A model generated the notes under the pieces. It saw nothing but the letters and a program-made list of their open reading frames with translations, made no database searches and was not told the origin of the DNA. A program made the translations under genes and the position numbers. Shown here piece after piece: positions 1 through 17,693 of a stretch of 64,000 bases of DNA (its first letter is position 1; every line of letters begins with the position of its first letter). The DNA is from Candidatus Sulfotelmatobacter sp. (lineage in GTDB: Bacteria > Acidobacteriota > Terriglobia > Terriglobales > Acidobacteriaceae): contig DATFNP010000042.1 in NCBI GenBank assembly GCA_035266345.1, forward strand, positions 9,660 to 73,659, in the 5' to 3' direction.

Positions 1-10
1 AGACACCGCG

Positions 11-187
11 TCAGCTTGGTTGCACGTACACGGGTTCTCGCTTGCAGATTTTTTCCAGGGTATGCTGATTGATTCCGCGACGCATGAATTCTCGTTTGGG
101 AACCTTCGCGATCCGCGCCAGTTGTTCGTCATCTGCAACAGCATTCCCTCTTCGTCTGTACTGGATGGGCGAATGCAAGGCGAACAT
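11..187 (-). CDS. Possible small (58 aa) DNA-binding-like protein
   Basis: ATG at 187 and TGA at 11-13. Translation: MFALHSPIQYRRRGNAVADDEQLARIAKVPKREFMRRGINQHTLEKICKREPVYVQPS. It is below the ORF-track cutoff and no family was recognised. Confidence 0.25.
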   Translation of the reverse strand: MFALHSPIQYRRRGNAVADDEQLARIAKVPKREFMRRGINQHTLEKICKREPVYVQPS

Positions 188-912
188 GATAGGATTACTG
201 TGCTGTGGACGAGGGCTGCAAGCGCGTGCTGTTGATTGCGGCGAGCATCCTAGCCGCTCGCAAACTGGCGCAGTTACAACGGAGGGACGCGCGTCCCGGC
301 GACGCTTGATAACACGATGGCCGCTACAATAACTGGTGTGAGACCTCTGGAGGGGAAGAAGCCCGTAGTCGTCTCCGCAACTGTGACCGTCCCGGCGACC
401 TCCCCGCTTTGGGGCTTATCAATTGCAACCACTGTGACGCCGCCGGGCACTCCGAACTCGACGACAGCGTCCTCGCCTACTCAACGTGCCGTCGCAAGAA
501 CAACGCCAAGTCCGGTGATTCGATACGCAGCGGCAGTGCTGACGGGGCAAGACGACGTGCTTGCGTCCATAGCCCCTTGTTTTGACAGCGACAGCGCGAG
601 AATCAAGAAACAAAGGCTCAAGAAAAAAAGAAGACAGTTGGGTTTTGGAGTCATTGGAATTCGCACTCTGCACGACGGGAAATGAAGTTCTCGCCGTAGC
701 TGACGACATGGTCTCTCGCATTAACCAAATCCTAGCCCTCTACTGCAACTTCACTCGATACTTTCGGTTGATTGCATTAGCTGGATTAACGCGAAGGGCG
801 AAGCACTACGCACTGTTCGGGGTTCCCTCCCACGAACACATTACCCGCCTCAACCCTAACAGGTCAGGCAAAAGCGGCTCCAAGAGATAAACCGAGGCCA
901 GGTTCCCCAATA

Positions 913-1395
913 TCAACTCGCCGACCTGAATCCGGCTAAGGCCCAGAACACTGAGCGCATCAATGCAAACACAAGCACGACGGGTAGAACCGCAAACGCT
1001 GCATACCCTCTAATTTCGTCATCATGCCAACGTTCCCACCGTGAGGGTAGGGCGAACCGGTGTCCATGTGGAACCTCGTATTCATCTCCACCACAATCTC
1101 CTCCAGCTAAAACCCACGGCTCCTTATCCGATACTCGGCTGCCTGTCTTGTCGTAGCAGTCCACTTTCTGACCCCGTGTGTCTATCGTAAAACCGGAGGA
1201 AAGGTGTACTACCGGCCGCCTGTTGTCAAAATCGGGAGCCACACCTAGGTCATGTGCTGGCGCTTTAGGCCACGAACTGGCGTCCATAGTGGCGAGCGCG
1301 ATTACGAAGACCACCCAGCATATCGCCGTGACAACGTACAACCGTGTTATCCCGCGTCTCCACTGAATGCTCTTCATCGTCTCCGGGGCTGTCAT
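913..1395 (-). CDS. Hypothetical membrane protein (two hydrophobic segments)
   Basis: 160-aa ORF. Its start overlaps the stop of the upstream ORF (ATGA at 1392-1395), which suggests translational coupling. TM-like segments: LYVVTAICWVVFVIALA and AFAVLPVVLVFAL. Confidence 0.55.
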   Translation of the reverse strand: MTAPETMKSIQWRRGITRLYVVTAICWVVFVIALATMDASSWPKAPAHDLGVAPDFDNRRPVVHLSSGFTIDTRGQKVDCYDKTGSRVSDKEPWVLAGGDCGGDEYEVPHGHRFALPSRWERWHDDEIRGYAAFAVLPVVLVFALMRSVFWALAGFRSAS

Positions 1396-1877
1396 TTCCG
1401 GGAGCCTATATCTCTTTTCTCATCGGCAGGCATTCCGACAGTGGAAGAGGGTTTCTTCGGCGGCTGCTCTTGCAAAGGTGTCCCGTCGGCCCATTGCAAT
1501 CTAAGTGCGTAGTGTTTGGGTCGTTTCTTCGGAGCAGGTTCAATTCGCGTTCTGAAGACCTCATCGGCTTTCGCTTTGCGGAATTCCTGCATTCCGTTGT
1601 ACTGCGGGTGCAAGATGACAATTGCACGCGCATAATACGGTTCCAGTTTGTCATTCAGCTTGTAGGTGTCCGATGGACCCTTTTCGATGTCCAGTTTCCA
1701 ACGTGCGTATTCCCACAAGGAGCCGCAAGAATAGGCAGTAAATCCGCGCCTGATGCGTGCCTCAATTCCCTCAACCAGGAAGTCCAGCACCTCAGGGTGA
1801 TTGCGGTGAAACTGATGAAACTCTCGCAGTTCCTGGCAGTCCTTAGAATGCGCTACTAGTTCCTCAATCGTGTGCAT
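1392..1877 (-). CDS. Hypothetical protein (possible cargo of the left element)
   Basis: 161-aa ORF, same orientation as and downstream of the left cas1, coupled to 913-1395. No recognisable family. Confidence 0.55.
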   Translation of the reverse strand: MHTIEELVAHSKDCQELREFHQFHRNHPEVLDFLVEGIEARIRRGFTAYSCGSLWEYARWKLDIEKGPSDTYKLNDKLEPYYARAIVILHPQYNGMQEFRKAKADEVFRTRIEPAPKKRPKHYALRLQWADGTPLQEQPPKKPSSTVGMPADEKRDIGSRK

Positions 1878-2104
1878 AATTCACGGCCCGCAGTTTTAAC
1901 AATAGTCATCACAATCACCCACCGCCAGTCACCACGGTAACCTAAGCAAACCGCGGTCTAACTGCGCTCTGTTCGTTGGTTTAAGAACCGTGCCGTTCCG
2001 CGCCGTTCGCACTGCTTCACATCGAAAACACGGTAAAGCGTGCCATCTGCTGCCGTCTAAGTTGTTGTAACTACGTTTTCACGCGGATTCAAGGTCCCTG
2101 GCAC

Positions 2105-3670
2105 CTATGAGCCGAGCGTCCTTTCGATGTATCTTTCTGGACTTGGTGAAACATCTACCAGTTTCGCCAGCGTCTGCCAGTGCCTCGGATGCGGGCGATA
2201 TCCCTCGCGGATGCGGCCACCGTACCAGCGAGACACTGAGATTTGTCGAGCGATAGCACGTGCTGAGGTCGAGGCGAGGAGTGGTTGAATCTTTTCCGAA
2301 AAGAATTTCTCTGTCAGCCACGCTGGCTGGTCGGACGACTTCCATGAGTGTTGCGCTAAAGCGTTCTTACGTTGAGTGATCGCACGCTTCAACTGGGCTT
2401 CAGGACCATTCGCCGTTTGGCGACCAATCCGCGCGGCATCGAGCATGTTCTTGGTGGCATCCCCAAGGGAGCAGCTGACACAGGTGGTACTGCGGTCTTG
2501 AATAGTTTTCCCGCAGCCGGGACAAATATTTTCCCGCCGGGGTGCCTTAATCGCGGATGGTAGTGGCGGTGCACCCTTTGCTTCTCGCTTGAAACGCTGC
2601 GTTAGCCGCGTAGGCGGCGCAGACTCACGAGCGAGCCTGGCTGAACTCGACCAGAGCGCACGAGCAATCCACTCCGCGAATGGCGCGACCGCACGAGCCC
2701 ACATCGGAGCTGTCTGCGAAAGTTGACAAGCGAAGGATGCGGTCAGCCGAGTGTTCCCATTTCCTAGCTCAAGAAACCATTCTCGCTTAAGCGGTTCGCG
2801 TGTGATCCAATCAAGCAAGTAAGCGTCCACGCGTGCGCGACTTGGCTCCATCAGGTCGCACGCCAAACTGTCGCGCGCAGTTGTGTCCACATGCAGAACA
2901 CCCAAGCCTGGGTCTAGTCCCAGACAAGCCGCTGCAAGACGAGCTTCGGATTCCAGCAGGCAATACAGAAAGTTAAGAATTGCGTTTGCGGGATTTGCGG
3001 CAAGCCGGGGTGATCCCGTCAGCGGAGAGACCCGCGCTCCGAAGCTCTGCCAATGAGCGGGAATTCGTCCAACCTCATTCTTCGGGAAGTTGACAGGTAG
3101 TGTGCTCCACGCCGACCAATAGGATCGGGCGGCTTGTGACTCGATCAACCGGATAGTCGTGATGCTCTCGGCGGCTGGCAATTCCGCCATGAATTGAGCA
3201 ATCTTGTCAGCGGCAGAGGTGTCCAAGAGTTTGTAACGCGCAACCTGTGCCTGCCCTGCGAGCTTCTGGCTGATTAGTTCTCGCGCGATTCGCAGCGCGG
3301 CGCCGGATGAAAGCGCAAGGGCTTGGGCTCGCCGGAGTTTGGCATCCGAAGGGCGGACCGGCCCGGTGACGGCGAGCACCTTACCATCACGTTCAAGCAT
3401 CGCAAAACTTGCATCCTGATCGGCGAGCCAGCGCAGCGCGGCCAGTGATATGAACCCGTCTGAGCCAATGCAGACCAAACGCCTCAGCCCGTGTCCGACG
3501 CGGGCGAGCCTGATCTTGCGGCGCTCCGGCCCGATGCCATCTTCGATTTCCAAGTGGCCGGACTGCATCCGCACCTTGATTCCGAAACCAGTGAGCGTGA
3601 GAACGCCACTTCTGCCAATGAGGGATTTACGGGATACGTTGTGTTGCGGTAGGGTGCCTGAAGCTGCCAT
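2105..3670 (-). CDS. cas1: Cas1-family integrase (casposase-like) with C-terminal Zn-ribbon and HTH extension
   Basis: 521 aa. Cas1 signatures: IESQAARSYW (catalytic E), NPANAILNFLY, GLDPGLGVLHVD (H), SLACDLMEPSRARVD (D/E). C-terminus carries CPGC..CVSC and an HTH-like ARQISVSRWYGGRIREG. Confidence 0.9.
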   Translation of the reverse strand: MAASGTLPQHNVSRKSLIGRSGVLTLTGFGIKVRMQSGHLEIEDGIGPERRKIRLARVGHGLRRLVCIGSDGFISLAALRWLADQDASFAMLERDGKVLAVTGPVRPSDAKLRRAQALALSSGAALRIARELISQKLAGQAQVARYKLLDTSAADKIAQFMAELPAAESITTIRLIESQAARSYWSAWSTLPVNFPKNEVGRIPAHWQSFGARVSPLTGSPRLAANPANAILNFLYCLLESEARLAAACLGLDPGLGVLHVDTTARDSLACDLMEPSRARVDAYLLDWITREPLKREWFLELGNGNTRLTASFACQLSQTAPMWARAVAPFAEWIARALWSSSARLARESAPPTRLTQRFKREAKGAPPLPSAIKAPRRENICPGCGKTIQDRSTTCVSCSLGDATKNMLDAARIGRQTANGPEAQLKRAITQRKNALAQHSWKSSDQPAWLTEKFFSEKIQPLLASTSARAIARQISVSRWYGGRIREGYRPHPRHWQTLAKLVDVSPSPERYIERTLGS

Positions 3671-3747
3671 TGGAGCTCATACCTCCGTGGTAGTTAGGGT
3701 CTGTCGGCTGCTTCGAACAGTCCGGCAGGCCCGCTTCCTTCAATGAA

Positions 3748-4542
3748 CTAATTTGGATTCCGCAATTTGTACCTTCGTCTGGTCCGTTGACGTGTGGGCG
3801 TAGCCCTGCGCGACTGCACGAACACCTCTTCGGGTCTAAGAGATCCGACCAGATTGATGGCTGTACGTGCTTTAACCCCGAAGAGCGCGCCCGCGAGGGC
3901 CCGAGACAGAAACCAGAATTGCTTGTACCGAGTCGAGGGGCGTGCTGACACATCGCAGCGCGGGAAACGGGGATCACGCAACGCATCCACATATTGCTCC
4001 GCGAACTCAGACAAATAACCGGGCAGCGTACTGCCTGGAAGCATGGGCCAAGCCGGAAACTGCTCAACATCTTGGAAACCCCCAGGCTCAATCTCGACTG
4101 TTCGACTCATGAAGGCTTCTTTACAAATATCGCGCACTCGCTCGGGAGTCGTTTTGGGGTCTAGCAAAGAGTTGATTACCTCCGGCTCACCGGGGAACCT
4201 CAGTTCCTCCCTAGCTTCTTCTGCTATACAACGTCGTAACCAATCTCGCGTGACCGGAATCTCGGCATCTTCTATTTCTCGGAGCCTGGTTTCCCTCTGA
4301 GCCTGCGCCAACACACCAGCGCGAATCTCATTCCCAATGATCTCCTCGCGGTGCTGTCTCGTTTCTTCCTTTAGTTGAGCATCCGTTTTCCGGTCCAACT
4401 CTGCTTCTAACTGCTTCTGCTTTAGCCTATTGATCCGCCATCGGGGCATTCCCTCGGCAATCCTCCGAAAGTCCCAATAGAACTGATGGGCGAACGTGTA
4501 GAGCGTTTCTGAGTCTACTTTTGTTGGTCTTCCAGCTCCCAT
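3748..4542 (-). CDS. Conserved element protein of unknown function (264 aa), paralogue of 10391-11158
   Basis: Shared blocks with 10391-11158: N-terminal MGAGRPTKVD..FAHQFYWDFRRIAEG and C-terminal LRDPRFPRCDVSARPSTRYKQFWFLSRALAGALFGV..TAINLVGSLRPEE. It lies immediately upstream of cas1. Confidence 0.75.
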   Translation of the reverse strand: MGAGRPTKVDSETLYTFAHQFYWDFRRIAEGMPRWRINRLKQKQLEAELDRKTDAQLKEETRQHREEIIGNEIRAGVLAQAQRETRLREIEDAEIPVTRDWLRRCIAEEAREELRFPGEPEVINSLLDPKTTPERVRDICKEAFMSRTVEIEPGGFQDVEQFPAWPMLPGSTLPGYLSEFAEQYVDALRDPRFPRCDVSARPSTRYKQFWFLSRALAGALFGVKARTAINLVGSLRPEEVFVQSRRATPTRQRTRRRYKLRNPN

Positions 4543-4662
4543 AATTAAAGGGCAAAAGCTATTTTAGATTTCTTGAAGCTCTTAGGTTACATCCTCTATA
4601 ACTGCCTACAGTATGCACGTTGACTGCTTGTTACGCAAGGGGCAATAACAGGAGGCACCAGG
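4543..4662. promoter_or_regulatory. Divergent control region of the left module, with two AAGGG(G)CAA motifs
   Basis: AAAGGGCAAAA at 4547-4557 and CAAGGGGCAATAA at 4636-4648. The same motif pair is conserved in the right-copy intergenic region while the spacer is diverged. AGGAGG precedes the ATG at 4663. Confidence 0.45.
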
Positions 4663-4899
4663 ATGCACCGAGATGAAACCGTAGTAGCCGTTGGGATGTC
4701 CGAAGCGGCCCGGAGGTTGGGCCTGTCCACTCGCACCGTGGCCACGCTTGTCCTGCGGAACGAGCTTCCGAGCCGAAAGGTGGGCCGCCGGAGAATTATT
4801 CCGGTTATGGCATTGGAGGCCTTCGTTAGGAGTGATCACGGGTCTGGCTGCCTCGGGCCAGCTGCAGCTGCTGAAGGAGAAACTGGCAGAACGGCGTAA
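4663..4899 (+). CDS. Excisionase-family helix-turn-helix DNA-binding protein
   Basis: MSEAARRLGLSTRTVATLVLRNELPSRKVGRRRIIPVMALEAFV matches the Xis/MerR-type HTH pattern (..G.S..T...L...G.LP..K.GRR..I....L..F). Paralogue at 10047-10268. Confidence 0.85.
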   Translation: MHRDETVVAVGMSEAARRLGLSTRTVATLVLRNELPSRKVGRRRIIPVMALEAFVRSDHGSGCLGPAAAAEGETGRTA

Positions 4900-4904
4900 A
4901 AACC

Positions 4905-5459
4905 ATGCCGCACAAACGAAAGCGGCAGGCGGAAACCTCGTCCAGGGGCAGCCGCTCAGCCGCTAAGAACAAAAAACGCTTCAACATTAGTGTCTCGCGT
5001 CACGATGCATCGCGCAAGCGCATTACTGCGTTTGAACTCGTGAGACTTCGACGCCAGGGTCTTGCCTGGAGGGATATTGAAAAACAGTCGGGCATCACTC
5101 GCCGAACAGCAAAGCTTCTTCTCCCACGTGCTTTTTTCCATGACGAGCGTGGCCAGCTTCAGGTGCGTGGGTATGACCGGTATACCCGCACACTGAAAAT
5201 CCCCACGGCTAAGCCAGGGGAATTTAGGTGGCTGCGCGCTCGCGGGAGCCGCCAAGCAAGCCTTGTGGGTGCGTGGAACAACGCAGTCAAGGCCGCGGGG
5301 CGGGGCGATTTCTCACTTATAGATGCCTTTCCGCGCAATATCTTCATAGACGGAGTGCGTCTCGCAACCTCCCATTACGAGGTTTCACGTATCGCTGCGG
5401 CTGCTGCGGAGAGCGATCAGCCGTTCGAGGATCTGTACGCCCTGGCAGGTGCGGTGTAA
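4905..5459 (+). CDS. Conserved element protein of unknown function (184 aa, basic N-terminus, internal HTH-like segment)
   Basis: Same position as 9405-10031 in the other copy, with weak similarity by eye. Basic N-terminus: MPHKRKRQ. HTH-like segment: LAWRDIEKQSGITRRTAKLLL. Confidence 0.65.
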   Translation: MPHKRKRQAETSSRGSRSAAKNKKRFNISVSRHDASRKRITAFELVRLRRQGLAWRDIEKQSGITRRTAKLLLPRAFFHDERGQLQVRGYDRYTRTLKIPTAKPGEFRWLRARGSRQASLVGAWNNAVKAAGRGDFSLIDAFPRNIFIDGVRLATSHYEVSRIAAAAAESDQPFEDLYALAGAV

Positions 5460-5461
5460 CT

Positions 5462-5737
5462 GTGCGCAAACGATGCACACTTTGCGACAGGCCAGCCACA
5501 GAATGGCATCACGTCGGCGGCCGAAATCACTGCAGTTGGTTTCGTGTTCCGCTGTGCACTCTCCATCATCAGCTGGTAACCAGAGCCTATTACAATGCCG
5601 ACCCTGACATGATGAAACCGGCGTCGAACCTTGAGCAGCGGATCAAACGCGCTCGTGAAGGATGCCATGTCTTTTTGTGGTTACTGGATCACCCGGAGGT
5701 AATTGATCCGGAGAAGATTTTGGGAGGTAACGTATGA
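5462..5737 (+). CDS. Small HNH-like zinc-finger protein
   Basis: GTG start in frame. CTLCDRPATEWHHVGGRNHCSWFRVPLCTLHH fits CxxC..HH..G.N..LC..H. Its stop overlaps the polB-fragment start (ATGA at 5734-5737). Paralogue at 9115-9408. Confidence 0.7.
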   Translation: MRKRCTLCDRPATEWHHVGGRNHCSWFRVPLCTLHHQLVTRAYYNADPDMMKPASNLEQRIKRAREGCHVFLWLLDHPEVIDPEKILGGNV

Positions 5738-6477
5738 TTCCTGATCGCTTGCCAATCTTTCTTCGGGCGCACACGGTCAAAGTGCAGAGGCAGCCCAAAG
5801 CTCCATCGAAGAAAGATAGCGCGATGCCTCCACGCTGGCCAGAGCGCGCCCTGCTGTTCGACACTGAGACCCGCACTTCCATTGATCAGACGTTGATGTT
5901 CGGAGTCTACCGTATCTGCAATCTGATCGACGGACAGTACCGTTGCAGCGAAGAGGGTCTCGTCTATGATGAACGACTTTCCAAACAGGAACTCAACACC
6001 ATAGGGACTTTCGTGGCAAACAGTTTTCCCGACATCGAGCTGCCTTGCTTCCCGCCCAAGATACGGTTGCGAGTACATCGCTCGTTCCCCGAATTCATGG
6101 AACACGTGTTCTTTCCCGCGCTGCGTAAGGGATGGCTGATCGTGGGCTTCAACTTGCCATTCGATCTAAGCCGTCTCAGCCTCGATTGGCGGACGCACAA
6201 TGGGGGATTCGCCCTCATTTTTTCAAAGACGTGGTGGAGAAAAACTCAATGTTGGGTTGCGAATCCCTATCGGCCGCCGATCATCCTCGAAGCGAAAGAC
6301 GCGCGGACAGTATTCATGTCTCGTGGCTCAACGAAACGTCCGGCGGAATGGCCGAACGAAGCCAGACTCCTCGACATCGGAACATTGTTATTTTCGCTGT
6401 TCGATCAACATTGCAGTCTGCGCGATTGGTGGTGCCGGATATATTCCTCGATCATGTGCCCGTACGTGAGAGGGTGA
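5734..6477 (+). pseudogene. Family B DNA polymerase, N-terminal (exonuclease domain) fragment
   Basis: Aligns with aa ~40-290 of the 901-aa PolB (LLFDTETRTSIDQTLMFGVYR; VGFNLPFDLSRLSLDW; LLDIGTLLFSLFDQHCSLRD). Homology ends at ~6425-6430. The remainder is antisense to the other polB. Confidence 0.8.
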
Positions 6478-9110
6478 AAACCAGGATCGTCCATCCGGTA
6501 ACGTCGATATCGGCCGCGCCGATCCCGATTGTGAATATCGACACCTTCGAGACTGCGCCACTCGTCTTGCTTGCTCGAAAATGGCACAATCACCATGGGT
6601 TTGTGATCGGGTTTGTTATCAAAATCGAAATCGAATGAGTACGCCTCGGAAGTCATCACCATGAACATGAAATTGTGGGGACGTGCACCCTCCCACATCT
6701 CCAGCATCTTGAACACGTTCCAAGTCGATACGGAGAAGCGCATCATCTCCGGAAGTGAAGCCCAATCCGGTCGTGTGCGTTCTAATCCCAGAAATTCGCG
6801 CACGATGTAATCCCACATCTCGTAAACCCACAGTGGCGCGTCTTTTCTCCAATTTCCCGGGTTGTCTTTTGGGGGATAGAGAAAGCCGATTCCGTGCGCT
6901 TTGGGATTGACGATTTTTGTATCTGTTAATTTCCCGCGTCTGTTCAATACCTTTTCAAGTAGCGCGTATCTTTTGGCTGCTATGCCCACACCCCACAACT
7001 GCCGACGCACCTTTTTCTTCGCGTTGCAGTTGCATCCGCGCACCTCACAAACTCCGGCTTCATCATGCTCGGTTTTGAGTTCATGCGAACATTTGCACAC
7101 GTAATTGTCATCTGTGAGATTCAGTAGGTCCTGCACTACGTCCGGGTCGTACGGATTGAGCGCCTGGAACTTGGCAGTAATTCGGTCAACGTCATCCCAG
7201 GTCAAAATACGTTTACCCTGCGCGCCGGGGGTACGCAGCGTGCCGCCATTCTTCGATGCCACAATCGCCAAACTGTCGGTGTCGCAGTATAGATATGTTC
7301 CTCCGGCTCGCGTCACTTCGACCTCTAGCATCGCGAGCAAAAGCCTTCCGGCGGACGTGATGAGAGTTGCCAGGTAGGGCGCGAGCCACTTTCCCCGTTT
7401 TTCGATTACGCAGGAAGAATCAGGGAAACACTCATCACCGGAGAACACCATCACGCGCCTGGGTTGCTTGAAATGCTCTGGAATCAACTCCACAAAGAAC
7501 CCGTAGATCGAATTGGCCAGGATCTTCAACCAGTAGTAGAGATCGGCATCATCCTTGTTGCGTTTGCGTTCCTCGATAATCTTTGTGAAGAGGTCAACCG
7601 AATCATCATTAGGATCAATCAGGACTTTGCCGCGTAGTCTTACGGCTCTCATCCCCGGCTGCTTTCCGGAGGGCACAATGCGGAATGCCTGTTGAATCTT
7701 GGGAATCTTGCCGGGTTGCTGAACCACTGCGGCCACGAGGTCGGGGCCAGCCATGTAGACGGGTTCGGGATGAGCTGGGTTCGGATGCAAGTAGTTGTTG
7801 CCGATGTTATGGGTCACACCATCGTAGACAGTCCGGATGGGCAGGATGTCCCCATCAGGCAATACGCGGGCCACAAAGTTGAGATTGCGCCATGTGTCAC
7901 GCCGGAAGCATCTTTCCATAGTGATAGTCGCAACGAGGCGCTTTACGTTTTCCGTATCATCGACAAAGTCCAAACGCTCAGCCGTCAAGAATTTAAACAG
8001 CCCAAGGTTTGCACAACAGGATGGATACTCGGAGGTGTAATCAACAGGGGCCACGGGCACAACTTCGTGGCGGATTCGGCATTCGGAGCGACCGCCGTAG
8101 TAGCTCTGCATCCAACACCCAAGCTTTTCGTTGGGCACCTTGAACTTGACCTCAGGTCGTTCGATCCCCATTGCCTTCAGGTACGCTTTGGCAATACTCG
8201 CAGGTGAATAGGCATTCCAAGGCTTCAAATCTAGATCGGCATGCCTGTCAAATTCCTGCTTACAGGCGTTCAGCAATGCAATCGTGCAGCGGACATCCTG
8301 ACGGCAGTGTTCAATTTCCTCAGGTGTGACTCCGCCACTCGGATCATGATCATCTTTCTGGGGTAGGTTCTGCCCTTTGAAAGGACCGCCTTTGTTGTCA
8401 CAGGCAGTCCTAAGCGAGTGCGACTTGTTGTAAAGCACCCAGAGCAAGGTCCGAAGGTCGAGAAAGTGGATGTTTCTACCTGCGTCCTTCCACTCGTGTT
8501 GATTCTTCTTCCAAGGTCGCCACAGCTTGATTATCTGTTTCTTGCTGTCTATTGGTGTGATCAGGATGCGGGGATAATTGCAATTTTCGGGGCCGTCGGC
8601 ATATTGCATCAGCACGAGCGACCATTCGCCCTTATTCCCGTCCGTCCAGTCCAGGGTGATCCGCGTGAGATCGTAGCCGAGATTAAAGCCGACCACCATG
8701 GAACCGTCTCGCTTCAGCGCGGGCCAGAGTACCTTCTCCATGAACTGGGTGCGCGAGTAAAGCGGGAAGCGGGGAGGAAATGACGGTACATCGGAGACCG
8801 CCGTCTCCGTGTAAGTTTTGAGAACTTTGAGATCTTTCACGGGCAGGTCGTCAGCATGGAAAATCCCCTCTTCGATGACCTCATATTTCTGTCCGACTAG
8901 CTTGCTGCAGCGCCGCCATACGCCAAAGGTGAGTGACTGATCTACTGTGACCCGGCTTTCGGTATCGAACGCGAGGATGTCCGGCCACTTGGGTTCGCCC
9001 AGGGCATTGTTCTCCCCTTCGGTATTGGCGGTCTTTTTCTTCTTTTTCTTTCTCTCTATCGGTACGGCAAGAGCGCGCAAAAAGAGATCGTGAGTCTCAA
9101 TCATTTCCAA
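6405..9110 (-). CDS. polB: Family B DNA polymerase (3'-5' exonuclease plus polymerase domains)
   Basis: 901 aa. Motifs: Exo I AFDTES; Exo II VGFNLGYDLTRI; motif A VDYTSEYPS; motif B KILANSIYGFF; motif C YCDTDSLAIV; KxY IAAKRYALL. Confidence 0.92.
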   Translation of the reverse strand: MEMIETHDLFLRALAVPIERKKKKKKTANTEGENNALGEPKWPDILAFDTESRVTVDQSLTFGVWRRCSKLVGQKYEVIEEGIFHADDLPVKDLKVLKTYTETAVSDVPSFPPRFPLYSRTQFMEKVLWPALKRDGSMVVGFNLGYDLTRITLDWTDGNKGEWSLVLMQYADGPENCNYPRILITPIDSKKQIIKLWRPWKKNQHEWKDAGRNIHFLDLRTLLWVLYNKSHSLRTACDNKGGPFKGQNLPQKDDHDPSGGVTPEEIEHCRQDVRCTIALLNACKQEFDRHADLDLKPWNAYSPASIAKAYLKAMGIERPEVKFKVPNEKLGCWMQSYYGGRSECRIRHEVVPVAPVDYTSEYPSCCANLGLFKFLTAERLDFVDDTENVKRLVATITMERCFRRDTWRNLNFVARVLPDGDILPIRTVYDGVTHNIGNNYLHPNPAHPEPVYMAGPDLVAAVVQQPGKIPKIQQAFRIVPSGKQPGMRAVRLRGKVLIDPNDDSVDLFTKIIEERKRNKDDADLYYWLKILANSIYGFFVELIPEHFKQPRRVMVFSGDECFPDSSCVIEKRGKWLAPYLATLITSAGRLLLAMLEVEVTRAGGTYLYCDTDSLAIVASKNGGTLRTPGAQGKRILTWDDVDRITAKFQALNPYDPDVVQDLLNLTDDNYVCKCSHELKTEHDEAGVCEVRGCNCNAKKKVRRQLWGVGIAAKRYALLEKVLNRRGKLTDTKIVNPKAHGIGFLYPPKDNPGNWRKDAPLWVYEMWDYIVREFLGLERTRPDWASLPEMMRFSVSTWNVFKMLEMWEGARPHNFMFMVMTSEAYSFDFDFDNKPDHKPMVIVPFSSKQDEWRSLEGVDIHNRDRRGRYRRYRMDDPGFHPLTYGHMIEEYIRHHQSRRLQC

Positions 9111-9114
9111 TCCC

Positions 9115-9408
9115 TCATTTCGAGTTGCCCTCTAGTGCTTTTTCTTTCTCGATGTCTGAAGCAATTTCCTTTTCGAGCATGTCAAGCAGCATCCACATGA
9201 ACAGAACCGTCATCTTCAGGGCACGGATGAGCCTGTGAAAGCGATTCGGAGTGGAGCGTAGATCAATTCCGGCAGCCCGCTGTCTCGCATGGAAAATTAC
9301 TTGACACCTGGCGCAGAGCGACATGGTGAACCATGCAATGAAATTCTGCCCCCCGACGTGATGCTGCGTCACATCACAGGTGCTACCGCAGAGATTGCAC
9401 CGTCTCAT
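9115..9408 (-). CDS. Small HNH-like zinc-finger protein
   Basis: CNLCGSTCDVTQHHVGGQNFIAWFTMSLCARCQVIFH fits CxxC..HH..G.N..LCxxC..H. Its start overlaps the stop of 9405-10031. Confidence 0.8.
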   Translation of the reverse strand: MRRCNLCGSTCDVTQHHVGGQNFIAWFTMSLCARCQVIFHARQRAAGIDLRSTPNRFHRLIRALKMTVLFMWMLLDMLEKEIASDIEKEKALEGNSK

Positions 9409-10031
9409 GCGGCACCCCCGAAGTACGGGATGACCTGTTCACTACCGAAATGTTCGGGGAGATTGTCTTGCTCGCCCAACCTCCGAAGGGTTTTCGGGTC
9501 GGTCAGAAGCTCGTACCCTTGGACCGTTACGCCTCGCCATTTATCAAGCGCAGTAAGATCGCCTCTTTGAAAACGGAAGACATCGTTGCGGAAACGTGCA
9601 ATCTCGTTCCTGGCCTTTGAGCCTTCGATTTTGATTATGATTGGACCACTCGGGCCGGGAACTTCCATCCGGCGGACATAACGATCAGCGATGGCGCGGA
9701 TTCTGCCGTTCCTGTCCTTTTTGAATGCCTTGGGTATGTATTTCCAAAAGTCGCGGGTCGTGACGCCTCGGCCCTCTGCAGCTTGCGAAGCCGTGAGCTT
9801 GTGGTCGCGCAACATATCCGCATGCGCCGCCAGTGCATCCCCACGTTTCCTTAGCTCCGCCGGAGAGAGTAACCATGGGCGAGGCGCGCGATAGTGCTTA
9901 GAAACTGCGGCCGTGGCACGAGCAATTTCACCCGCGCGCGCAGATCGCGCTAAACTTGAGTTGATTGGTTTAGTTTTTCTGGCCCCCGGTAGCCTGGCGC
10001 GGCGAGCCTGGGACCTTCTTTTTGACGGCAT
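9405..10031 (-). CDS. Conserved element protein of unknown function (208 aa, basic N-terminus)
   Basis: Positional counterpart of 4905-5459, translationally coupled to the HNH-like gene. N-terminus: MPSKRRSQARRAR. Confidence 0.7.
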   Translation of the reverse strand: MPSKRRSQARRARLPGARKTKPINSSLARSARAGEIARATAAVSKHYRAPRPWLLSPAELRKRGDALAAHADMLRDHKLTASQAAEGRGVTTRDFWKYIPKAFKKDRNGRIRAIADRYVRRMEVPGPSGPIIIKIEGSKARNEIARFRNDVFRFQRGDLTALDKWRGVTVQGYELLTDPKTLRRLGEQDNLPEHFGSEQVIPYFGGAA

Positions 10032-10046
10032 TGGCTCACCCCGCGC

Positions 10047-10268
10047 TCATGCTGTTTCCCTCAAAGCTGCTGCTCTAGTGCGACCAGGCCCATGGTTGGC
10101 TTGTACGAAAGCCTCCAAAGCCACAACGGGGATAATCCGTCGGCGACCTACCTTGCGGCTTGGTAGCTCCCGCCGCAGAACAAGAGTCGCTACTGTTCGA
10201 GCGGACAGCCCCAACCGCCGGGCTGCCTCAACCATCCCCACCGCAAGCACAGTTTCATCTCGGTGCAT
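10047..10268 (-). CDS. Excisionase-family helix-turn-helix DNA-binding protein
   Basis: MHRDETVLAVGMVEAARRLGLSARTVATLVLRRELPSRKVGRRRIIPVVALEAFV is nearly identical to the 4663-4899 product. Confidence 0.85.
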   Translation of the reverse strand: MHRDETVLAVGMVEAARRLGLSARTVATLVLRRELPSRKVGRRRIIPVVALEAFVQANHGPGRTRAAALRETA

Positions 10269-10390
10269 CTTCGAGCCTCCTATTTATTGCCCTTGCAGTG
10301 GCTAACCAGCAAGGCGCATAATATAGTTGTGTTGTACGGGATGATGACAATCACGGTCAATGATAGAGAAGCAGTTTTTGCCCTTTAATT
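10269..10390. promoter_or_regulatory. Divergent control region of the right module, with two TTGCCCTT motifs
   Basis: TTATTGCCCTTG at 10284-10295 and TTTTGCCCTTT at 10376-10386, the reverse complement of the motifs in 4543-4662. Confidence 0.45.
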
Positions 10391-11158
10391 ATGGGAGCCG
10401 GTAGACCACAAAAAGCCGACCCTGGATCGGTCTACGCGTTCGCGCACCAGTTTTATTGGGATTTCCGGAGGATCGCCGAGGGGAATCTTCGGTGGACACT
10501 GGACAGGGTAAAGCTTCGACAGTCGACCATCGAGCTTGAGAACTTGAACATCCCCGCAGAGGCAGCCAAGAAAGCTGAGGAAGAAATTCAAGCTGGTCTC
10601 TTAGAAGCATCCAAAAAGCAGGAACGGTGCCGGGAGCTGGAGGATCAACTCTCCTCAACACGGCCACTGTGGTCCCGTATCGTAAGAGAGGATGCTATGA
10701 AGGAAGTCAGGATACCGGGTGAACCCGGAGTCCTTAAGGAATTGCTGGACCCGGCAACGACTCCGGAGCGGATACGAGAGGTCTGCAGAGAAGCAGTCAT
10801 GACTAGGAAGGTTGAAGTTGAACCCGGCGTGCAGAAGGAAATAGAAGTAGAGGCCTGGCCCATTCCTCCAGGCAGTCCATTTCCCACATATTTGTCTCAG
10901 TACGCAGAACAGTACGTTGCTGCCTTGCACGACCCGCGTTTCCCTCGCTGTAATGTTTCAATCCGCCCGTCGACCCGACTGAAGCAATTCTGGTTTCTAT
11001 CTCGCGCCCTCGCGGGTGCGCTTTTCGGGGTTACCACACGCACAGCCATCAATCTGGTCGGCTCCCTCCGACCCGAAGAGATTTTCGAAGAATCTCGGGA
11101 TGCAAAACCGGCACGCAAACGGGTGAGGCGAAAATACAAATCGCGGCCCGCAAGCTAA
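10391..11158 (+). CDS. Conserved element protein of unknown function (255 aa), paralogue of 3748-4542
   Basis: MGAGRPQKADPGSVYAFAHQFYWDFRRIAEG ... LHDPRFPRCNVSIRPSTRLKQFWFLSRALAGALFGVTTRTAINLVGSLRPEE. Confidence 0.8.
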   Translation: MGAGRPQKADPGSVYAFAHQFYWDFRRIAEGNLRWTLDRVKLRQSTIELENLNIPAEAAKKAEEEIQAGLLEASKKQERCRELEDQLSSTRPLWSRIVREDAMKEVRIPGEPGVLKELLDPATTPERIREVCREAVMTRKVEVEPGVQKEIEVEAWPIPPGSPFPTYLSQYAEQYVAALHDPRFPRCNVSIRPSTRLKQFWFLSRALAGALFGVTTRTAINLVGSLRPEEIFEESRDAKPARKRVRRKYKSRPAS

Positions 11159-11236
11159 GCTTCTTGAAGTAAAACGGGCCTGCCGACTGTTAGTAGCAGC
11201 CGACAAGCCCTGACCACCACAGGAGGCATTACTCCA

Positions 11237-12763
11237 ATGGCAGCTTCGCCCACGCTACCGCACTCGCACGCCCTCCGCAAATCTGGCGTCCTGGTCTTGA
11301 ATGGCTATGGCATCCGCGTCCAGGTGAACGCCGGTCATTTGCTCTTGCATGATGGGATAGCCGACGACCGCTGCACCATCCGCCTGCCCCGTGTAAACCA
11401 TGGTCTGAAAAGGTTGGTGCTGATCGGGAGCGACGGTTTCATTACGCTAGAAGCCCTGCGCTGGCTGGCTGATCAGGACGCGAGTTTCGTGATGCTTGAC
11501 CGCAGAGGCAAGGTGCTTGCCGTTACTGGTCCTGTTTCTCCATCGGATGCCAAGCTCCGCCGAGCACAGGCGCTCGCAATCGGCAACGGGACGGCGCTCA
11601 AGATTTCCAAGGAACTCATCTCCCAAAAGCTCGCCGGGCAGGAGCTACTCGTGCGGGATATGCTGCATGATTCCGCGGCAGCAGACGCAATTGCTCGATT
11701 CAAGGATGAACTACAAAGCGCGGAAGGTATAGAAGTCGTGCGGCTGATCGAAGCGCAGGCTGCGCGCTGCTATTGGCAATCGTGGGCTAACATACCGATT
11801 CACTGGCCGCGCAAGGACGAGCGCCGTGTGCCGGAACATTGGAAGCGATTTGGTTCCCGCATCTCACCCTTGACCCACAGTCCACGCCTTGCGGCCAACC
11901 CGCCGAATGCCTTGAGCAACCTGATCTATTCGATCCTGGAGGCGGAATCGAGACTAGCTGCATCGGCGATGGGCCTTGATCCCGGCATCGGCTTGCTCCA
12001 CGTGGACACCCCCAACAGGGATTCTCTCGCCTGTGACATCATGGAGCCGATACGCGCGAAGTGTGATGCCTTTGTTCTTGATTGGCTTCAGCGAGAGCCG
12101 CTCCGCCGCTCCGACTTTTGGGAGGACCGTAATGGGAACTGCCGCATTGCGTCACCGTTGGCCATCAAGCTCTGCGAGACTTCGGACACGTGGCGCAAAC
12201 TAGTAGCTCCGGTAGCAGAATATGTCGCGCAAGAGATTTGGTCCTCCGCGTCCAAACCAAGTTCCGTATCCAAGATTGCTCGACAATTGATCGCAACTCG
12301 CCTTACGCAGCGCTACAAACGCGAAGCAAAAGGTGGCGACCTACCAAAAGTTGGCCAGCCTAAACCCGAACATGTTTGCAGCGATTGCGGAGTCAAGATT
12401 CCAGTCGATGGGCAGCGCTGCTGGAAATGCTCAAAGCGGGTTACGGGTGTCAACTTCAAAGCCGGGCGTAAGTGCGCACAGCAACCGGAGCACCTAGCAA
12501 AGCGGGCAGCCACCATGCGGCGGCACAAGCAGGCCATTCGAAATTGGAAACCCTCAGACCTCCCGGCGTGGCTCACCCGCGATGTCTACCTAAAGCGGAT
12601 TCAGCCCGCGCTTGCCAGCGTCGCGAAGGCGCAAATCGGCGCCCTGCTGGGCGTAAGCGAGCCGTACTCATCGGACATTCAGGCGGGCAGGCGTATTCCG
12701 CATCCGAGGCACTGGCAGGCGCTGGCCCAACTGGTCGGTCTTCCGCCTGGCGGTGCTCATTGA
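11237..12763 (+). CDS. cas1: Cas1-family integrase (casposase-like) with C-terminal Zn-ribbon and HTH extension
   Basis: 508 aa. Signatures: IEAQAARCYW, NPPNALSNLIY, GLDPGIGLLHVD, SLACDIMEPIRAKCD. C-terminus carries CSDC..CWKC and the HTH-like IGALLGVSEPYSSDIQAG. Roughly two-thirds identical by eye to 2105-3670. Confidence 0.92.
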   Translation: MAASPTLPHSHALRKSGVLVLNGYGIRVQVNAGHLLLHDGIADDRCTIRLPRVNHGLKRLVLIGSDGFITLEALRWLADQDASFVMLDRRGKVLAVTGPVSPSDAKLRRAQALAIGNGTALKISKELISQKLAGQELLVRDMLHDSAAADAIARFKDELQSAEGIEVVRLIEAQAARCYWQSWANIPIHWPRKDERRVPEHWKRFGSRISPLTHSPRLAANPPNALSNLIYSILEAESRLAASAMGLDPGIGLLHVDTPNRDSLACDIMEPIRAKCDAFVLDWLQREPLRRSDFWEDRNGNCRIASPLAIKLCETSDTWRKLVAPVAEYVAQEIWSSASKPSSVSKIARQLIATRLTQRYKREAKGGDLPKVGQPKPEHVCSDCGVKIPVDGQRCWKCSKRVTGVNFKAGRKCAQQPEHLAKRAATMRRHKQAIRNWKPSDLPAWLTRDVYLKRIQPALASVAKAQIGALLGVSEPYSSDIQAGRRIPHPRHWQALAQLVGLPPGGAH

Positions 12764-12770
12764 CCCCATG

Positions 12771-12792
12771 ATGAGTGTAAACGGGATTTTGC
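12771..12792 (+). repeat. 22-bp direct repeat, copy A (ATGAGTGTAAACGGGATTTTGC)
   Basis: Matches 13487-13508 at 20 of 22 positions. Begins 8 nt after the right cas1 stop codon. Confidence 0.85.
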
Positions 12793-12815
12793 AACATTTG
12801 AGCAAGGCCACTGAC

Positions 12816-13385
12816 TTACGGTGAACGAGGAAGGCCCCTTCCCACTTCAATAATCATGTAGGGTCCTGTTGGAAATTCGCGTCCATCCGCCTCGATCACA
12901 AACCTCACCATCTCGCCTTTTAGCTTACCGCGAGCCGCCGTGGCTTCGGACCCTATCGAGAGAGTCTGACCGGGCCAAAGTCGCTTGTCCACCAGTTTGG
13001 ATTGTGCGATCCCTAGAGGGTATGGGCGACAATAGGTTCCCGCCGTATCAAAGAGCGTTTTCCAACTGTGCGTTCCCGTGTCCAACTGCTCAAGTCTATA
13101 CGGGACGCTCACTCCATGAGCGCCTGCGTCCGAAACAAATTCACATCTCTCGATTGTCGCTGGGAAGAGCCCGAAGTTTGTAAGGTGCGCATCAATGAGT
13201 TGCGTGATGCCCGGTATTCCAGTGTCGCCGTCGGAGACGGTCACATCAGCGTGCAGTCCAAGCGAGACGAAGTGGCCATATTGCGAGTGATGGTGAATTT
13301 GCAGGGCTCCGAGCGCAAGTACGAGAAACGAAAACACGGCAACCAAAGTCAAGGTCACGGGCCGCATTCTAAGAGCACGTTGCAT
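12816..13385 (-). CDS. Hypothetical secreted or membrane-anchored protein (189 aa)
   Basis: N-terminal hydrophobic signal-like segment VTLTLVAVFSFLVLALGAL. Lies entirely between the two 22-bp direct repeats. Confidence 0.55.
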   Translation of the reverse strand: MQRALRMRPVTLTLVAVFSFLVLALGALQIHHHSQYGHFVSLGLHADVTVSDGDTGIPGITQLIDAHLTNFGLFPATIERCEFVSDAGAHGVSVPYRLEQLDTGTHSWKTLFDTAGTYCRPYPLGIAQSKLVDKRLWPGQTLSIGSEATAARGKLKGEMVRFVIEADGREFPTGPYMIIEVGRGLPRSP

Positions 13386-13486
13386 AGCAGATCATGATAG
13401 ACCCGACTCGATGACCCAACCAACGCAGCAGCTTGTGTTTAGCAGGACAATTGACGAAATCAGGCGATTACACGTTTTGACGGTCA

Positions 13487-13508
13487 ATGAGTGATAACGG
13501 GATTTTGC
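13487..13508 (+). repeat. 22-bp direct repeat, copy B (ATGAGTGATAACGGGATTTTGC)
   Basis: Matches 12771-12792 at 20 of 22 positions. Confidence 0.85.
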
Positions 13509-13521
13509 GCCAACCCACGCC

Positions 13522-13944
13522 CTAATTTCCGTCAGGGCATTTGCAGGGAGTCGGAGGCGGTGGTGGCGGCGGTGGCGCTACTAGGAACGTATTCAACTGC
13601 GCAGTTGGAAGCTCGTAGAGGCCGCCGACCCTCAACCAGCAATACAACGCGAGCGCAGCCACCGGAATGCCGATCAGCAACGAGACTGCAAGTTTCCTCG
13701 AAGGTAGATGAAGCGGCTCGATTGCCTTCCGGGCTATGAAGAACCTTCCCATCGGCAGCGCCAATCCCACGACCATGATCAAAAACATCAGGATCGACCT
13801 GACCATCTGTGTGGTCATTCCCGATCCTGAAATCGCGTTGTAAAGAAACTCAGGGAACGTAAGCATGAGTTCCCCACGTGCCAGCGCTCCAACAAGGGGA
13901 CGGATGAAAACTGGAAACGCCCAGAACCACACGATGACAAACAT
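13522..13944 (-). CDS. Hypothetical integral membrane protein with poly-Pro C-terminus
   Basis: Several hydrophobic segments (MFVIVWFWAFPVFI, ILMFLIMVVGLAL, LLIGIPVAALALYCW). The tail has a PPPPPPPP run. The start was chosen at the internal Met because the upstream part of the ORF is a G-rich, Arg/Pro-rich stretch that is unlikely to be coding. Confidence 0.5.
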   Translation of the reverse strand: MFVIVWFWAFPVFIRPLVGALARGELMLTFPEFLYNAISGSGMTTQMVRSILMFLIMVVGLALPMGRFFIARKAIEPLHLPSRKLAVSLLIGIPVAALALYCWLRVGGLYELPTAQLNTFLVAPPPPPPPPTPCKCPDGN

Positions 13945-14257
13945 CACGAACCACGCAAGGAGAGAGCGCTTCGCATAGCCCGCGCTTCTCGCTCTACCAG
14001 CTAGCCCCGCGCCTCGCGCGGGCGGGCGGGCCCGGCGGGCTGGGTGTTCCAGCGGGCGGGTTCGGGGTTCCTGGGAGCGCGCGGGCGGGGGCGGCCAGGT
14101 CAAAATCGGGGGGTATGGCCGTCCATCCGGCGCTGTGGTATTACGGTGCCCCGAGTGACCCCGCTGGGTGGGGGGTGGAGCCGTTTTTCCCGTAGCCACA
14201 TCCTACCCGAACCAGTATTGACGCCATCCCCCTCAGCCCCTAACATTCCTCTAACGC

Positions 14258-16615: not shown

Positions 16616-16619
16616 AAAG

Positions 16620-16982
16620 AATCGAGTTTCCTACCGCGCCGCCGCCACACTTTGTGAGACGAACCGCAACCCCGCCGCCAGGCAAAGCCCCAATCTCCGC
16701 GGTGTAACGGTAAAACAACTGCAGCCCTTCCAGGCATCCGGCGTCGAGTTGGTAGTAGATATTCTCGGTCAGATAACTGCGGACTTCCGTCTCGCTGAGC
16801 CCAGGCGCGGCGCCCATTCTTGGGCGATCTGATTTAGACTGGCCGACTCCAGTCCATGATCGCGCGATTCGCCAAAAAACGCCGCCAGATCGAGCGAAGG
16901 ATCCGCCTCGCCCAGGGCCTGCTCCCGCACCGCACAATCCCAACTTAATCGCTCGACATTTTCGCCGGGGTGGCCGGATTTC
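16620..16982 (-). pseudogene. Remnant of an MqnA-like (futalosine-pathway chorismate dehydratase family) gene: C-terminal part only, frameshifted
   Basis: One frame gives LDLAAFFGESRDHGLESASLNQIAQEWAPRLG. After a +1 shift, another gives LSETEVRSYLTENIYYQLDAGCLEGLQLFYRYTAEIGAL, which resembles an MqnA C-terminus from memory. No N-terminal two-thirds is present. Confidence 0.4.
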
Positions 16983-17051
16983 TCACCCCTCTATAGCTAT
17001 CCCAGTCAAACGGGCCTATCCTGGCCACAGCGCCGGCCAAGTTCGATTCGC

Positions 17052-17621
17052 CTAGGGAGCGCTATGCCCCTTGCATTGCATCACGCCCAGATAGGCGCTC
17101 CACGGGCCTACTGCGTCACGATACTGGTGAGCCATGACGCGGGCGAGTTGATGCAAATGATTGAGGTCGTGAACGGCCCAGGTTGCGAGAAGTTCCGACA
17201 GCGTCACCACTCCCAACGCTGGATGCCTTCCGCGCCGGGCCAGGTCCCCCGGCTTTAAATTCAGCGCCTCGAGCGCAACCAGATTTTCTTTTCGCAGGCG
17301 GGCGAACTCATCGAGGAGTTGCTCCAGCGACTTGCCTTGGCTCTCTCTGGACTGCGCAAAGCGGTCGAAGGGATCAAAGGGCTTCGCTTCGCCGTTCTCC
17401 AGAATGATCCGCAGGCGCGGCATCCAGTCGGTGCGCTCGCCGACGATCAGGTGGCCGACGATGTCGAACGCGCTCCATGTGTCTGCCCCCAGGCTGCCGC
17501 GTCCTTCGTTGCGGAGCACCCAGGTGTCGGGCAGGCCGCGCAGCAGCGCATTCAGGGTTGCAGGAGTGCGGGAGAGAACGGCGATGGCTTCGGACAGGTC
17601 GAATTCCGCCAAGCTTGGCAT
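17052..17621 (-). CDS. DinB-family (DinB_2-like) protein
   Basis: WSAFDIVGHLIVGERTDW and LATWAVHDLNHLHQ are His-containing helices typical of the DinB/YfiT fold. Confidence 0.8.
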   Translation of the reverse strand: MPSLAEFDLSEAIAVLSRTPATLNALLRGLPDTWVLRNEGRGSLGADTWSAFDIVGHLIVGERTDWMPRLRIILENGEAKPFDPFDRFAQSRESQGKSLEQLLDEFARLRKENLVALEALNLKPGDLARRGRHPALGVVTLSELLATWAVHDLNHLHQLARVMAHQYRDAVGPWSAYLGVMQCKGHSAP

Positions 17622-17693
17622 GCCTACGTAGATGCATGCCTGGCACTTTGGACTCAAGCGACGTGGAGGGATGACGACCTACGCTGAAAGAAC

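Follow-up and report, generated by a model that had tools for sequence, protein, structure and literature searches.

A tail-to-tail pair of casposons fused inside both polB genes in a peat acidobacterium

We analysed a stretch of 64,000 nucleotides (hereafter the window) from Candidatus Sulfotelmatobacter sp., a member of the Acidobacteriaceae (contig DATFNP010000042.1, positions 9,660 to 73,659), which comes from a metagenome bin of 113 contigs that is 78% complete. The analysis centred on two genes for family-B DNA polymerases (polB) that meet on opposite strands close to position 6,430. Casposons are self-synthesizing transposons that encode a Cas1 integrase together with a family-B polymerase, and positions 2047–12810 of the window are two casposons of different lineages, named L (left) and R (right), with their polB ends facing each other, i.e. 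tail to tail. On each side the module order is cas1, a gene for a protein of 255–264 residues, an HTH_17 gene, a gene for a protein of 184–208 residues, an HNH-like gene and polB. The features of the pair, including the helix–turn–helix (HTH) proteins and the limits of each open reading frame (ORF), are as follows.

2047–2194, minus strand: Cas1-side terminal region of the left casposon, made up of the 3′ end of cas1 (PHPRHWQ-coding core, 2145–2194) and ~58 nt past the stop codon; the outer limit of ~2047 is approximate
2105–3670, minus strand: cas1-L casposase, 521 residues with a Zn-ribbon and HTH tail (Pfam Cas_Cas1, E = 3.4e-41; TIGR00287, E = 5.5e-31)
3748–4542, minus strand: conserved element protein, left copy, 264 residues, function not assigned; 57% identical with the product of ORF 10391–11158 and in the same position in relatives
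4663–4899, plus strand: HTH_17 (excisionase-like) small protein, left (Pfam HTH_17, E = 5e-10)
4905–5459, plus strand: 184-residue element protein, left, 74–76% identical with its counterparts in left-lineage relatives
5228–5737, plus strand: HNH-like nuclease candidate, left, 169 residues (weak Pfam RecA_dep_nuc match, E = 1e-4, below cut-off)
5734–6431, plus strand: polB-L stump, residues 1–232 only, with Exo I and Exo II kept and Exo III and the entire polymerase domain gone
6424–6438, no strand: junction, GATTGGT/GGTGCCGG (slash at the join), located by nucleotide alignment to relatives (11 of the left and 2 of the right lineage)
6405–9110, minus strand: polB-R, 901 residues, homologous to full-length relatives only as far as H893 (6432–6434)
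9115–9408, minus strand: HNH-like protein, right, 97 residues, 35% identical with the left copy
9405–10031, minus strand: 208-residue element protein, right, which matches the left 184-residue protein
10047–10268, minus strand: HTH_17 small protein, right (Pfam HTH_17, E = 2.9e-10)
10391–11158, plus strand: conserved element protein, right, 255 residues, 57% identical with the left 264-residue protein
11237–12763, plus strand: cas1-R casposase, 508 residues with a Zn-ribbon and HTH tail (Pfam Cas_Cas1, E = 1.3e-38; TIGR00287, E = 6.6e-31)
12698–12810, plus strand: terminal region of the right casposon on its Cas1 side, which contains the motif ATGAGTGTAAACGGGATTTTGC (12771–12792); the outer limit is ~12800–12810

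An all-against-all ORF comparison supported the original prediction, made from the sequence alone, in showing that the flanks of the polB junction are collinear mirror images. Protein identity between the left and right copies was 53% for Cas1, 57% for the 264- and 255-residue proteins, 26% (E = 1.5e-6) for the 184- and 208-residue proteins, 35% for the 169- and 97-residue proteins, and 34% for the left PolB stump and the N-terminus of the right PolB. Both elements were assigned as casposons because of this gene set of Cas1 (two copies), PolB, HTH_17 and HNH-like proteins. The TIGR00287 scores of the two Cas1 proteins exceed the cut-off of that model, and the C-terminal extension of Cas1-R gave weak Zn-ribbon matches at residues 378–413 and an HTH_31 match at residues 464–504 (E = 2e-4). 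No Cas2 was found in a genome search with working positive controls and no CRISPR-like array in window positions 1–20000. As casposons should, both elements have a Cas1 integrase with neither array nor Cas2 and a family-B polymerase gene in the same element, truncated in both copies. Neither cas1 gene is disrupted in the window. An Rfam scan of positions 1–16000 returned no match, and the fused-gene sequence was in none of the metatranscriptomes searched; the runs containing the DNA of the strain are peat metagenomes, plus one bioreactor run (X8). An in-situ fold-back duplication of a single element was considered as the origin of the mirror layout and rejected, each arm being much closer to its own external, widely distributed lineage than to the other arm.

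The ORF at 5734–6477 (plus strand, 247 residues) abuts the ORF of the 901-residue PolB (6405–9110, minus strand). Residues 8–230 of the short protein matched residues 9–234 of PolB in a single significant BLASTP segment (34% identity over 237 residues, E = 4e-33), and the alignment blocks from which the polB relationship had first been recognized were all found in the translations. The stop codon of the right polB lies at 6405–6407, exactly where it had been placed. The genes had been described as abutting or overlapping by about 25 nt: they do abut, the homologous segments meeting at 6431 with at most 1 nt in common, but the figure of 25 nt does not hold, as the ORFs overlap by 73 nt (6405–6477). 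Homology of polB-L ends at W232 (6427–6429), residue 232 of ~1000, and the left frame then runs for 16 codons through the antisense strand of polB-R to a stop codon at 6475–6477. The cut is not after the exonuclease domain, as had been proposed, but inside it, between Exo II (GFNLPFDL) and Exo III (YCRxD, at ~residue 265 in full-length L-lineage relatives). These L-lineage relatives came from 26 metagenome loci with 57–79% identity, five of which had long or full-length frames of 936–1019 residues. The full-length proteins (985–1019 residues) read ...SLRDWCRYFREERNL where the window has ...SLRDW/WCRIYSS; over a longer stretch, the long or full-length relatives read ...LFALFDQHRSLRDWCRYFREERNLGWVHEKLDHEPSGR...YCRRDV..., compared with ...LFSLFDQHCSLRDW/WCRIYSSIMCPYVRG and a stop codon in the window. 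An exhaustive profile-free search with the 247-residue ORF returned many fragments and some full-length proteins. We also considered whether this ORF represents a family of stand-alone exonucleases, which was rejected: its nearest relatives with enough downstream sequence continue as longer PolBs or as full-length ones, and Exo III is missing from the stump. One record of a soil catalogue (SRR5215469_5514178, protein P0124; 235 residues, 72% identical with the left stump) has its last residue exactly where the breakpoint lies (...SLRDW); in all probability the record is of a partial gene cut off by the end of a contig.

The right PolB was also found to be truncated when its C-terminus was compared with those of intact homologues, as the original prediction had advised. 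Among the matches listed, more than 1100 relatives had E <= 1e-10, and the closest full-length ones among them were 72–84% identical and mostly 1013–1053 residues long (the window's own record, of 899 residues, set aside); names given to homologues indicate Acidobacteriota/Terriglobales. In an alignment of 15 sequences PolB-R was homologous up to the invariant H893, after which every relative reads PEAKSLGPDGKPC... and continues for a further 120–150 residues, many of them invariant, which include an HTH-like tail; this whole segment is missing in PolB-R. Its final eight codons (HQSRRLQC, 6408–6431) and stop codon are antisense of the polB-L stump. A junction origin had been suggested for the last ~9 codons (HHQSRRLQC), which is right as to origin and one codon too long, since H893 is still homologous. 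The family-B motifs, read by eye in the translation, are Exo I–III, motif B KILANSIYG, motif C YCDTDS and KxY AAKRYA; PolB-R matched Pfam DNA_pol_B_2 just under the cut-off (E = 1.5e-5) and had several PHROG DNA-polymerase matches. Both polB genes are thus 3′-truncated and joined directly at 6431, each with an antisense tail taken from the other stump. The L stump, without Exo III and all polymerase motifs, is expected to be dead, and R PolB, which keeps Exo I–III, motifs A–C and KxY and has lost a C-terminal domain conserved across the family, is probably impaired. For annotation, the 901-residue 'PolB' and the 247-residue ORF should be treated as truncated pseudogene products with antisense-derived tails and not mistaken for a novel short polymerase or an independent exonuclease.

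Next, the join was analysed at the base level. The breakpoint was located at 6431 ± 1 base, left-lineage sequence being traceable to 6431 and right-lineage sequence from 6431. At this point L-lineage relatives read CTGCGCGAyTGGTGCCGnTAC, the R-lineage relative L012 in plus orientation reads CCTCGGGGTGCCGGATATATTCC, and the window reads CTGCGCGATTGGTGGTGCCGGATATATTCC; the heptamer GGTGCCG is present at the breakpoint in relatives of both lineages. A contig from run X9, of an intact R-lineage relative, matches the window from 6431 rightwards, and leftwards it is the reverse complement of codons for PEAKSLGPDG. The tail-to-tail order makes the two GGTGCCG copies direct repeats on the plus strand, and short direct repeats are a classic substrate of RecA-independent deletion. 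By a rough estimate, chance alone would place a 7-nt match this close (a few bases) to both breakpoints in ~1% of cases. Because the product retains three extra bases (GGT), the join would be either an imprecise slipped-mispairing or microhomology-mediated event, or the outcome of end-joining within the repeat.

A fold-back chimera is a possible concern in a metagenome-assembled genome, and here the source is a 113-contig bin and the data that span the join are short-read. The check for such a chimera, which had been proposed from the start, showed the join to be genuine. The exact 899-residue protein is recorded on five contigs, and the four places shown, two JGI metagenomes and two Logan run assemblies, match window positions 1–19104, 1–11224 or 2295–11225 at 99.99–100% identity and carry the same join. 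Contigs of runs X1, X2, X4 and X5 (peat, two studies) and of X8 (bioreactor, a third study) cross 6431 without differences, and the whole-stretch contigs had a word depth of 9 (X1) and 12.7 (X2). A repeat scan of positions 1–16000 detected no repeat at the junction able to mislead a de Bruijn graph, the two arms being only ~75% identical even in their best stretches. On this evidence we regard an assembly artefact as extremely improbable. Two Logan contigs from different samples both stop at 11224–11225, in the intergenic region before cas1-R, which suggests a branch in the graph, either a variant haplotype or a k-mer common to another casposon of the community.

The terminal repeats were then examined. 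The Cas1-side ends of the two elements form an inverted repeat (2145–2194 and 12698–12747) that is 84% complementary over 50 nt, with a 38-nt core that is 92% identical. The right end has 94% nucleotide identity to positions 228–328 of a metagenome contig (L018), ending at 12800, and a post-stop motif, CAACA.T..AG.C.GGCA, was recognized by eye as common to cas1-end sequences. At their polymerase-side end, intact relatives carry the cas1 3′ end and terminal motif a second time, as an imperfect copy in inverted orientation. This copy lies directly after the PolB stop codon in L012 and L013 and ~450 nt after it in L030, the two ends of which are ~66% alike over the aligned stretch; in L059, the closest R-lineage relative, the motif GATGAGTGTAATCGG points outward ~340 nt past the PolB stop codon, after a small conserved ORF (MPYKDPE...). 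These repeats were detected through translated similarity; repeat finding in the relatives gave no clean terminal inverted repeats, and the repeats are imperfect (~66–84%). In the genome studied here the cas1-3′ core occurs only at three cas1 ends and therefore both polymerase-side termini have been lost, each element keeping only its Cas1-side end. Terminal inverted repeats at both ends, a hallmark of casposons, are present in the intact relatives and in neither window element, and the earlier observation that no terminal repeat lies between the two polB genes proved accurate. Because each element has only one end, neither would be able to transpose alone, and the pair would be a non-autonomous relic. 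The small ORF, MPY(K/R)DPE...W.RE, is found in both lineages (L059 4272–4600, L018 6633–6955 and L030 after the PolB stop codon) and is missing from the window owing to the deletion discussed below.

Taken together, these data make it probable that two casposons inserted separately, tail to tail, and that a single deletion guided by microhomology later removed at least 3.2 kb. According to this scheme, the L and R elements would have inserted independently with their polymerase-side ends adjacent, and a single RecA-independent deletion would then have removed ~770 polB-L codons with the left terminus, any spacer, the right terminus, the small post-polB ORF and ~140 polB-R codons. The deletion would have used the GGTGCCG direct repeats at the two breakpoints, imperfectly, and the facing, mutually inverted terminal repeats would have made a quasi-palindrome favouring such an event. 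In bacterial chromosomes deletions occur between short direct repeats or at quasi-palindromes. The window resembles the former in having the heptamer at both inferred breakpoints, and the deleted segment would have held two facing inverted terminal repeats; it differs from the textbook outcome, in which one copy is left, by the three additional bases. The minimum loss is ~2.3 kb of polB-L and terminus, ~0.4 kb of polB-R and ~0.35 kb of downstream ORF and terminus, giving a total of 3.2 kb or more, with any spacer in addition. The missing left 3′ polB was absent from the genome when an R-lineage PolB profile was run over its six-frame translation and a full-length L-lineage PolB was used as query; the search for the lost two-thirds suggested in the original prediction thus returned only four PolB loci, none with the missing parts. 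Recombination between two oppositely oriented copies, its second option, is essentially right if taken as illegitimate recombination or deletion; homologous exchange is disfavoured because the copies are only 34–57% identical in protein.

Several points weigh against the deletion scheme. The join is not a clean one-copy heptamer product, the strict overlap being 0–1 nt, and end joining is equally possible; moreover, the heptamer was deduced from relatives just 70–84% identical and not from the actual parental sequences. The pre-deletion state of two intact tail-to-tail elements has been seen nowhere. Published arrays are head to tail (PMC4779613), and a tail-to-tail start needs opposite-oriented targets or an inversion of one copy; both orientations relative to the target are known among archaeal casposons (PMC4779613, PMC4046053). 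No target-site duplication is definable for either element; in a genome of 78% completeness, absence of the missing piece is not absolute; and all of the junction-spanning evidence comes from short-read assemblies of apparently one clonal population. If the scheme is correct, the locus documents the death of casposons base by base, through illegitimate deletion across two facing ends and not through point mutation. In any case two diverged casposon lineages share a single locus in one genome, and the exact breakpoint and common heptamer make both the deletion mechanism and the composite-element idea described below testable.

The first option of the original prediction was that one element had inserted into the other's polB and that a deletion followed. 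Here the R casposon would have entered polB-L at ~codon 232, and later deletions would have removed the polymerase-side end of R and the displaced 3′ part of polB-L. That elements accumulate at this locus, as seen from an extra copy of the terminal motif and a PolB-tail relic (see below), fits such a history. The join, however, is not at the terminus of R, which is itself cut 140 codons inside polB, so that the casposase did not make the junction; no remainder of polB-L was found beyond the outer end of R (12810 onward) or elsewhere in the genome; and at least two deletions are needed, compared with one for adjacent insertions. We therefore view nested insertion as unlikely and as the less economical account.

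The matching Cas1-side repeats bear on another possibility, namely that a two-headed chimera arose off the chromosome, by a strand or template switch at GGTGCCG or by end joining, to give one molecule, bounded on both sides by Cas1-side repeats, that then integrated whole and may still move as such via either casposase. Such an origin would account for a composite bounded by inverted repeats of 84% identity over 50 nt (92% in the 38-nt core), higher than the ~66% of the two ends of L030, and it agrees with the intact state of both cas1 genes in the window and with the heptamer common to both breakpoints. Against it, no direct repeat of at least 9 nt (or of 14 nt with two mismatches) was found around the composite, as delimited by its approximate termini; no flanking duplication is expected for single elements short of one end. 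The composite was also found in one genomic context only, with identical flanks in all assemblies, and in one sample (JGI 3300010379) cas1-L is cut short at codon 242 by a C>A substitution at position 2947. This substitution is one of only two differences in 19 kb and suggests that selection on the left casposase is relaxed. We judge a chimera of this origin to be quite unlikely, and the specific proposal that a polymerase or repair reaction switched between co-resident elements at the heptamer, leaving a two-headed composite casposon with two casposases that is mobilisable as a unit, to be very unlikely. If true, it would provide a route for different casposon lineages to recombine and exchange modules. 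Separately, positions 228–523 of L018, compared with window 12505–12801, were found to be a mosaic in which the cas1 core belongs to the L lineage (72% at the protein level) and the last 100 nt of cas1 and the terminus are 94% identical in nucleotide sequence to R. Judged from its sequence, this mosaic appears to indicate recombination between casposon lineages and may hint that module exchange of the two-headed kind occurs among these casposons.

We next considered the surroundings of the pair. In the closest relative, G014, the ValRS gene lies 1.9 kb from the genes corresponding to window 19194 onward and the order is collinear; from this comparison, the region reads as a 23.6-kb variable island that is absent from G014. 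As G014 differs over the whole island, it offers no empty site from which the exact insertion points could be read. The gene order bears on the possibility that an illegitimate exchange between the elements inverted the intervening DNA and left a reciprocal junction with the missing 3′ parts elsewhere. Casposon inversion by terminal-repeat recombination has been considered in published work (PMC4779613), and a reciprocal product could lie in the part missing from a genome that is 78% complete. Against this, no reciprocal product was detected, the four PolB loci recovered with the R-lineage profile and the full-length L-lineage PolB being without the missing parts, and the genes flanking the island on either side are in the same order as in G014; an inversion is accordingly highly improbable. 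A large chromosomal inversion was also rejected: ValRS and the kinase are not adjacent in three relatives, but G014 and G006 keep ValRS beside the genes of window 19194 onward, and the region is for this reason a variable island and not an inversion breakpoint.

To the left of the L element are two unrelated ORFs and then a relic of a PolB tail, with McrBC and ValRS further upstream on the contig. A McrB-like AAA_5 ATPase (896 residues) and McrC (414 residues) are encoded between ValRS and the casposon pair (contig C42 5566–9484, upstream of the window; locus L007), so that McrBC defence genes lie inside the same 23.6-kb variable island; G014 is without them. To the right of the R element, a one-gene segment is followed by a solitary terminal motif. 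The two outlying features are as follows.

1–190 (contig C42 9560–9850), minus strand: relic of a PolB C-terminal HTH-like tail, REFMRRGINQHTLEKICKREPV..., frameshifted and continuing in another frame upstream of the window
13474–13520, plus strand: solitary second copy of the terminal motif, ATGAGTGATAACGGGATTTTGC, with the motif core at 13487–13508 (0 matches expected by chance)

The relic gave a weak match to the PolB-family C-terminal profile (E = 0.095 over the whole six-frame genome) and also a tblastn match. It is 91% identical in protein and 77% in nucleotide sequence to L018 6976–7077, part of a piece (6976–7150) that lies downstream of an intact PolB on an unrelated metagenome contig. 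The relic was examined as the lost C-terminus of polB-R, which would imply that L had inserted into polB-R, and this was rejected as the main reading: a frameshift interrupts the relic, which is only ~45% like an R-lineage tail that otherwise hardly varies; the relic and the L terminus are ~1.9 kb apart, with unrelated ORFs in between; and the same relic is found downstream of an intact PolB in L018. Its similarities make it probable that an older element left the relic behind and that it is not the lost end of either fused gene; it would derive from either an older casposon or a conserved sub-terminal module. The solitary motif at 13474–13520 is a candidate for a solo terminal-repeat relic of a further element. 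A family of ~30-nt motifs (consensus near GGTCAATGAGTGTAATCGGGATTTTTCACCAATT) is scattered in the genome (C4 3826 and 4571, C87 776, C107 64702, C112 394 and 24620); several copies are found close to the ends of contigs, and one, which faces outward, is 1.9 kb downstream of the C107 PolB. These are candidate casposon termini or solo terminal repeats, or alternatively a host regulatory site.

The window elements were compared with described casposons. The family 3 element AceAut-C1 of Candidatus 'Acetothermum autotrophicum' (Krupovic et al. 2014, PMC4046053) is, by its description, similar in its bacterial host, in a solo Cas1 with a C-terminal zinc-binding domain and HTH, in a family-B polymerase with a C-terminal HTH-like tail, in HNH-like and small HTH core genes, in imperfect terminal inverted repeats and in having neither a CRISPR array nor Cas2. 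The window elements thus show the feature set of family 3 (Cas1 with Zn and HTH, HNH and HTH genes, bacterial host), with the HNH-like gene weakly supported. Unlike AceAut-C1, they reside in a peat acidobacterium, both copies are defective and fused, and their PolB matches only a protein-primed-type Pfam model, below cut-off. In Methanosarcina, several casposons may occur at one locus, one copy commonly being inactivated in polB, and solo terminal repeats are found (Krupovic et al. 2016, PMC4779613); degraded casposons, including remnants without recognizable terminal repeats, are represented by MetBur-C3 and a remnant in M. psychrophilus (PMC4046053). The window locus is like the Methanosarcina arrays in accumulating casposons, in polB inactivation, in repeat-less remnants and in the solo terminal motif. 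Those arrays, however, are head to tail with a common target-site duplication and were inactivated by stop codons (PMC4779613), whereas the window pair comprises two lineages, tail to tail, with a single deletion fusing the polB genes antisense to each other. The pair is therefore a variant of known casposon decay and not a new kind of system, and the finding, although real, is a rather ordinary trace of the decay of mobile elements. A full-text literature search yielded no paper describing casposons in Acidobacteria; the PolB relatives counted above (more than 1100 at E <= 1e-10, among the matches listed) add evidence that soil and peat Acidobacteria are a large, little-described reservoir of family-3-like casposons.

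Other casposon loci were found in the same genome and in the metagenomes. Contig C107 (66620–73538; locus L005) carries a third casposon with an apparently full-length PolB (991 residues) and a Cas1 64% identical with that of cas1-L; this third element could supply polymerase in trans. A fourth PolB copy, on contig C67 (31533–34178; L006 7642–10182), is an 846-residue ORF without the first 150–180 residues, including Exo I, and no Cas1 was found within 7.6 kb upstream; from its sequence we take it to be another truncated casposon polymerase. At other metagenome loci L-lineage polB is cut at ~residues 70, 169, 203, 226 and 392, and one copy has an internal deletion of residues 170–902, so that decay by deletion appears to be the norm among these casposons. 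At locus L032, polB residues 3–169 are fused to residues 903–961 (958–1278), and in a second segment (10001–10679) the N-terminal region of cas1 abuts a C-terminal piece of polB.

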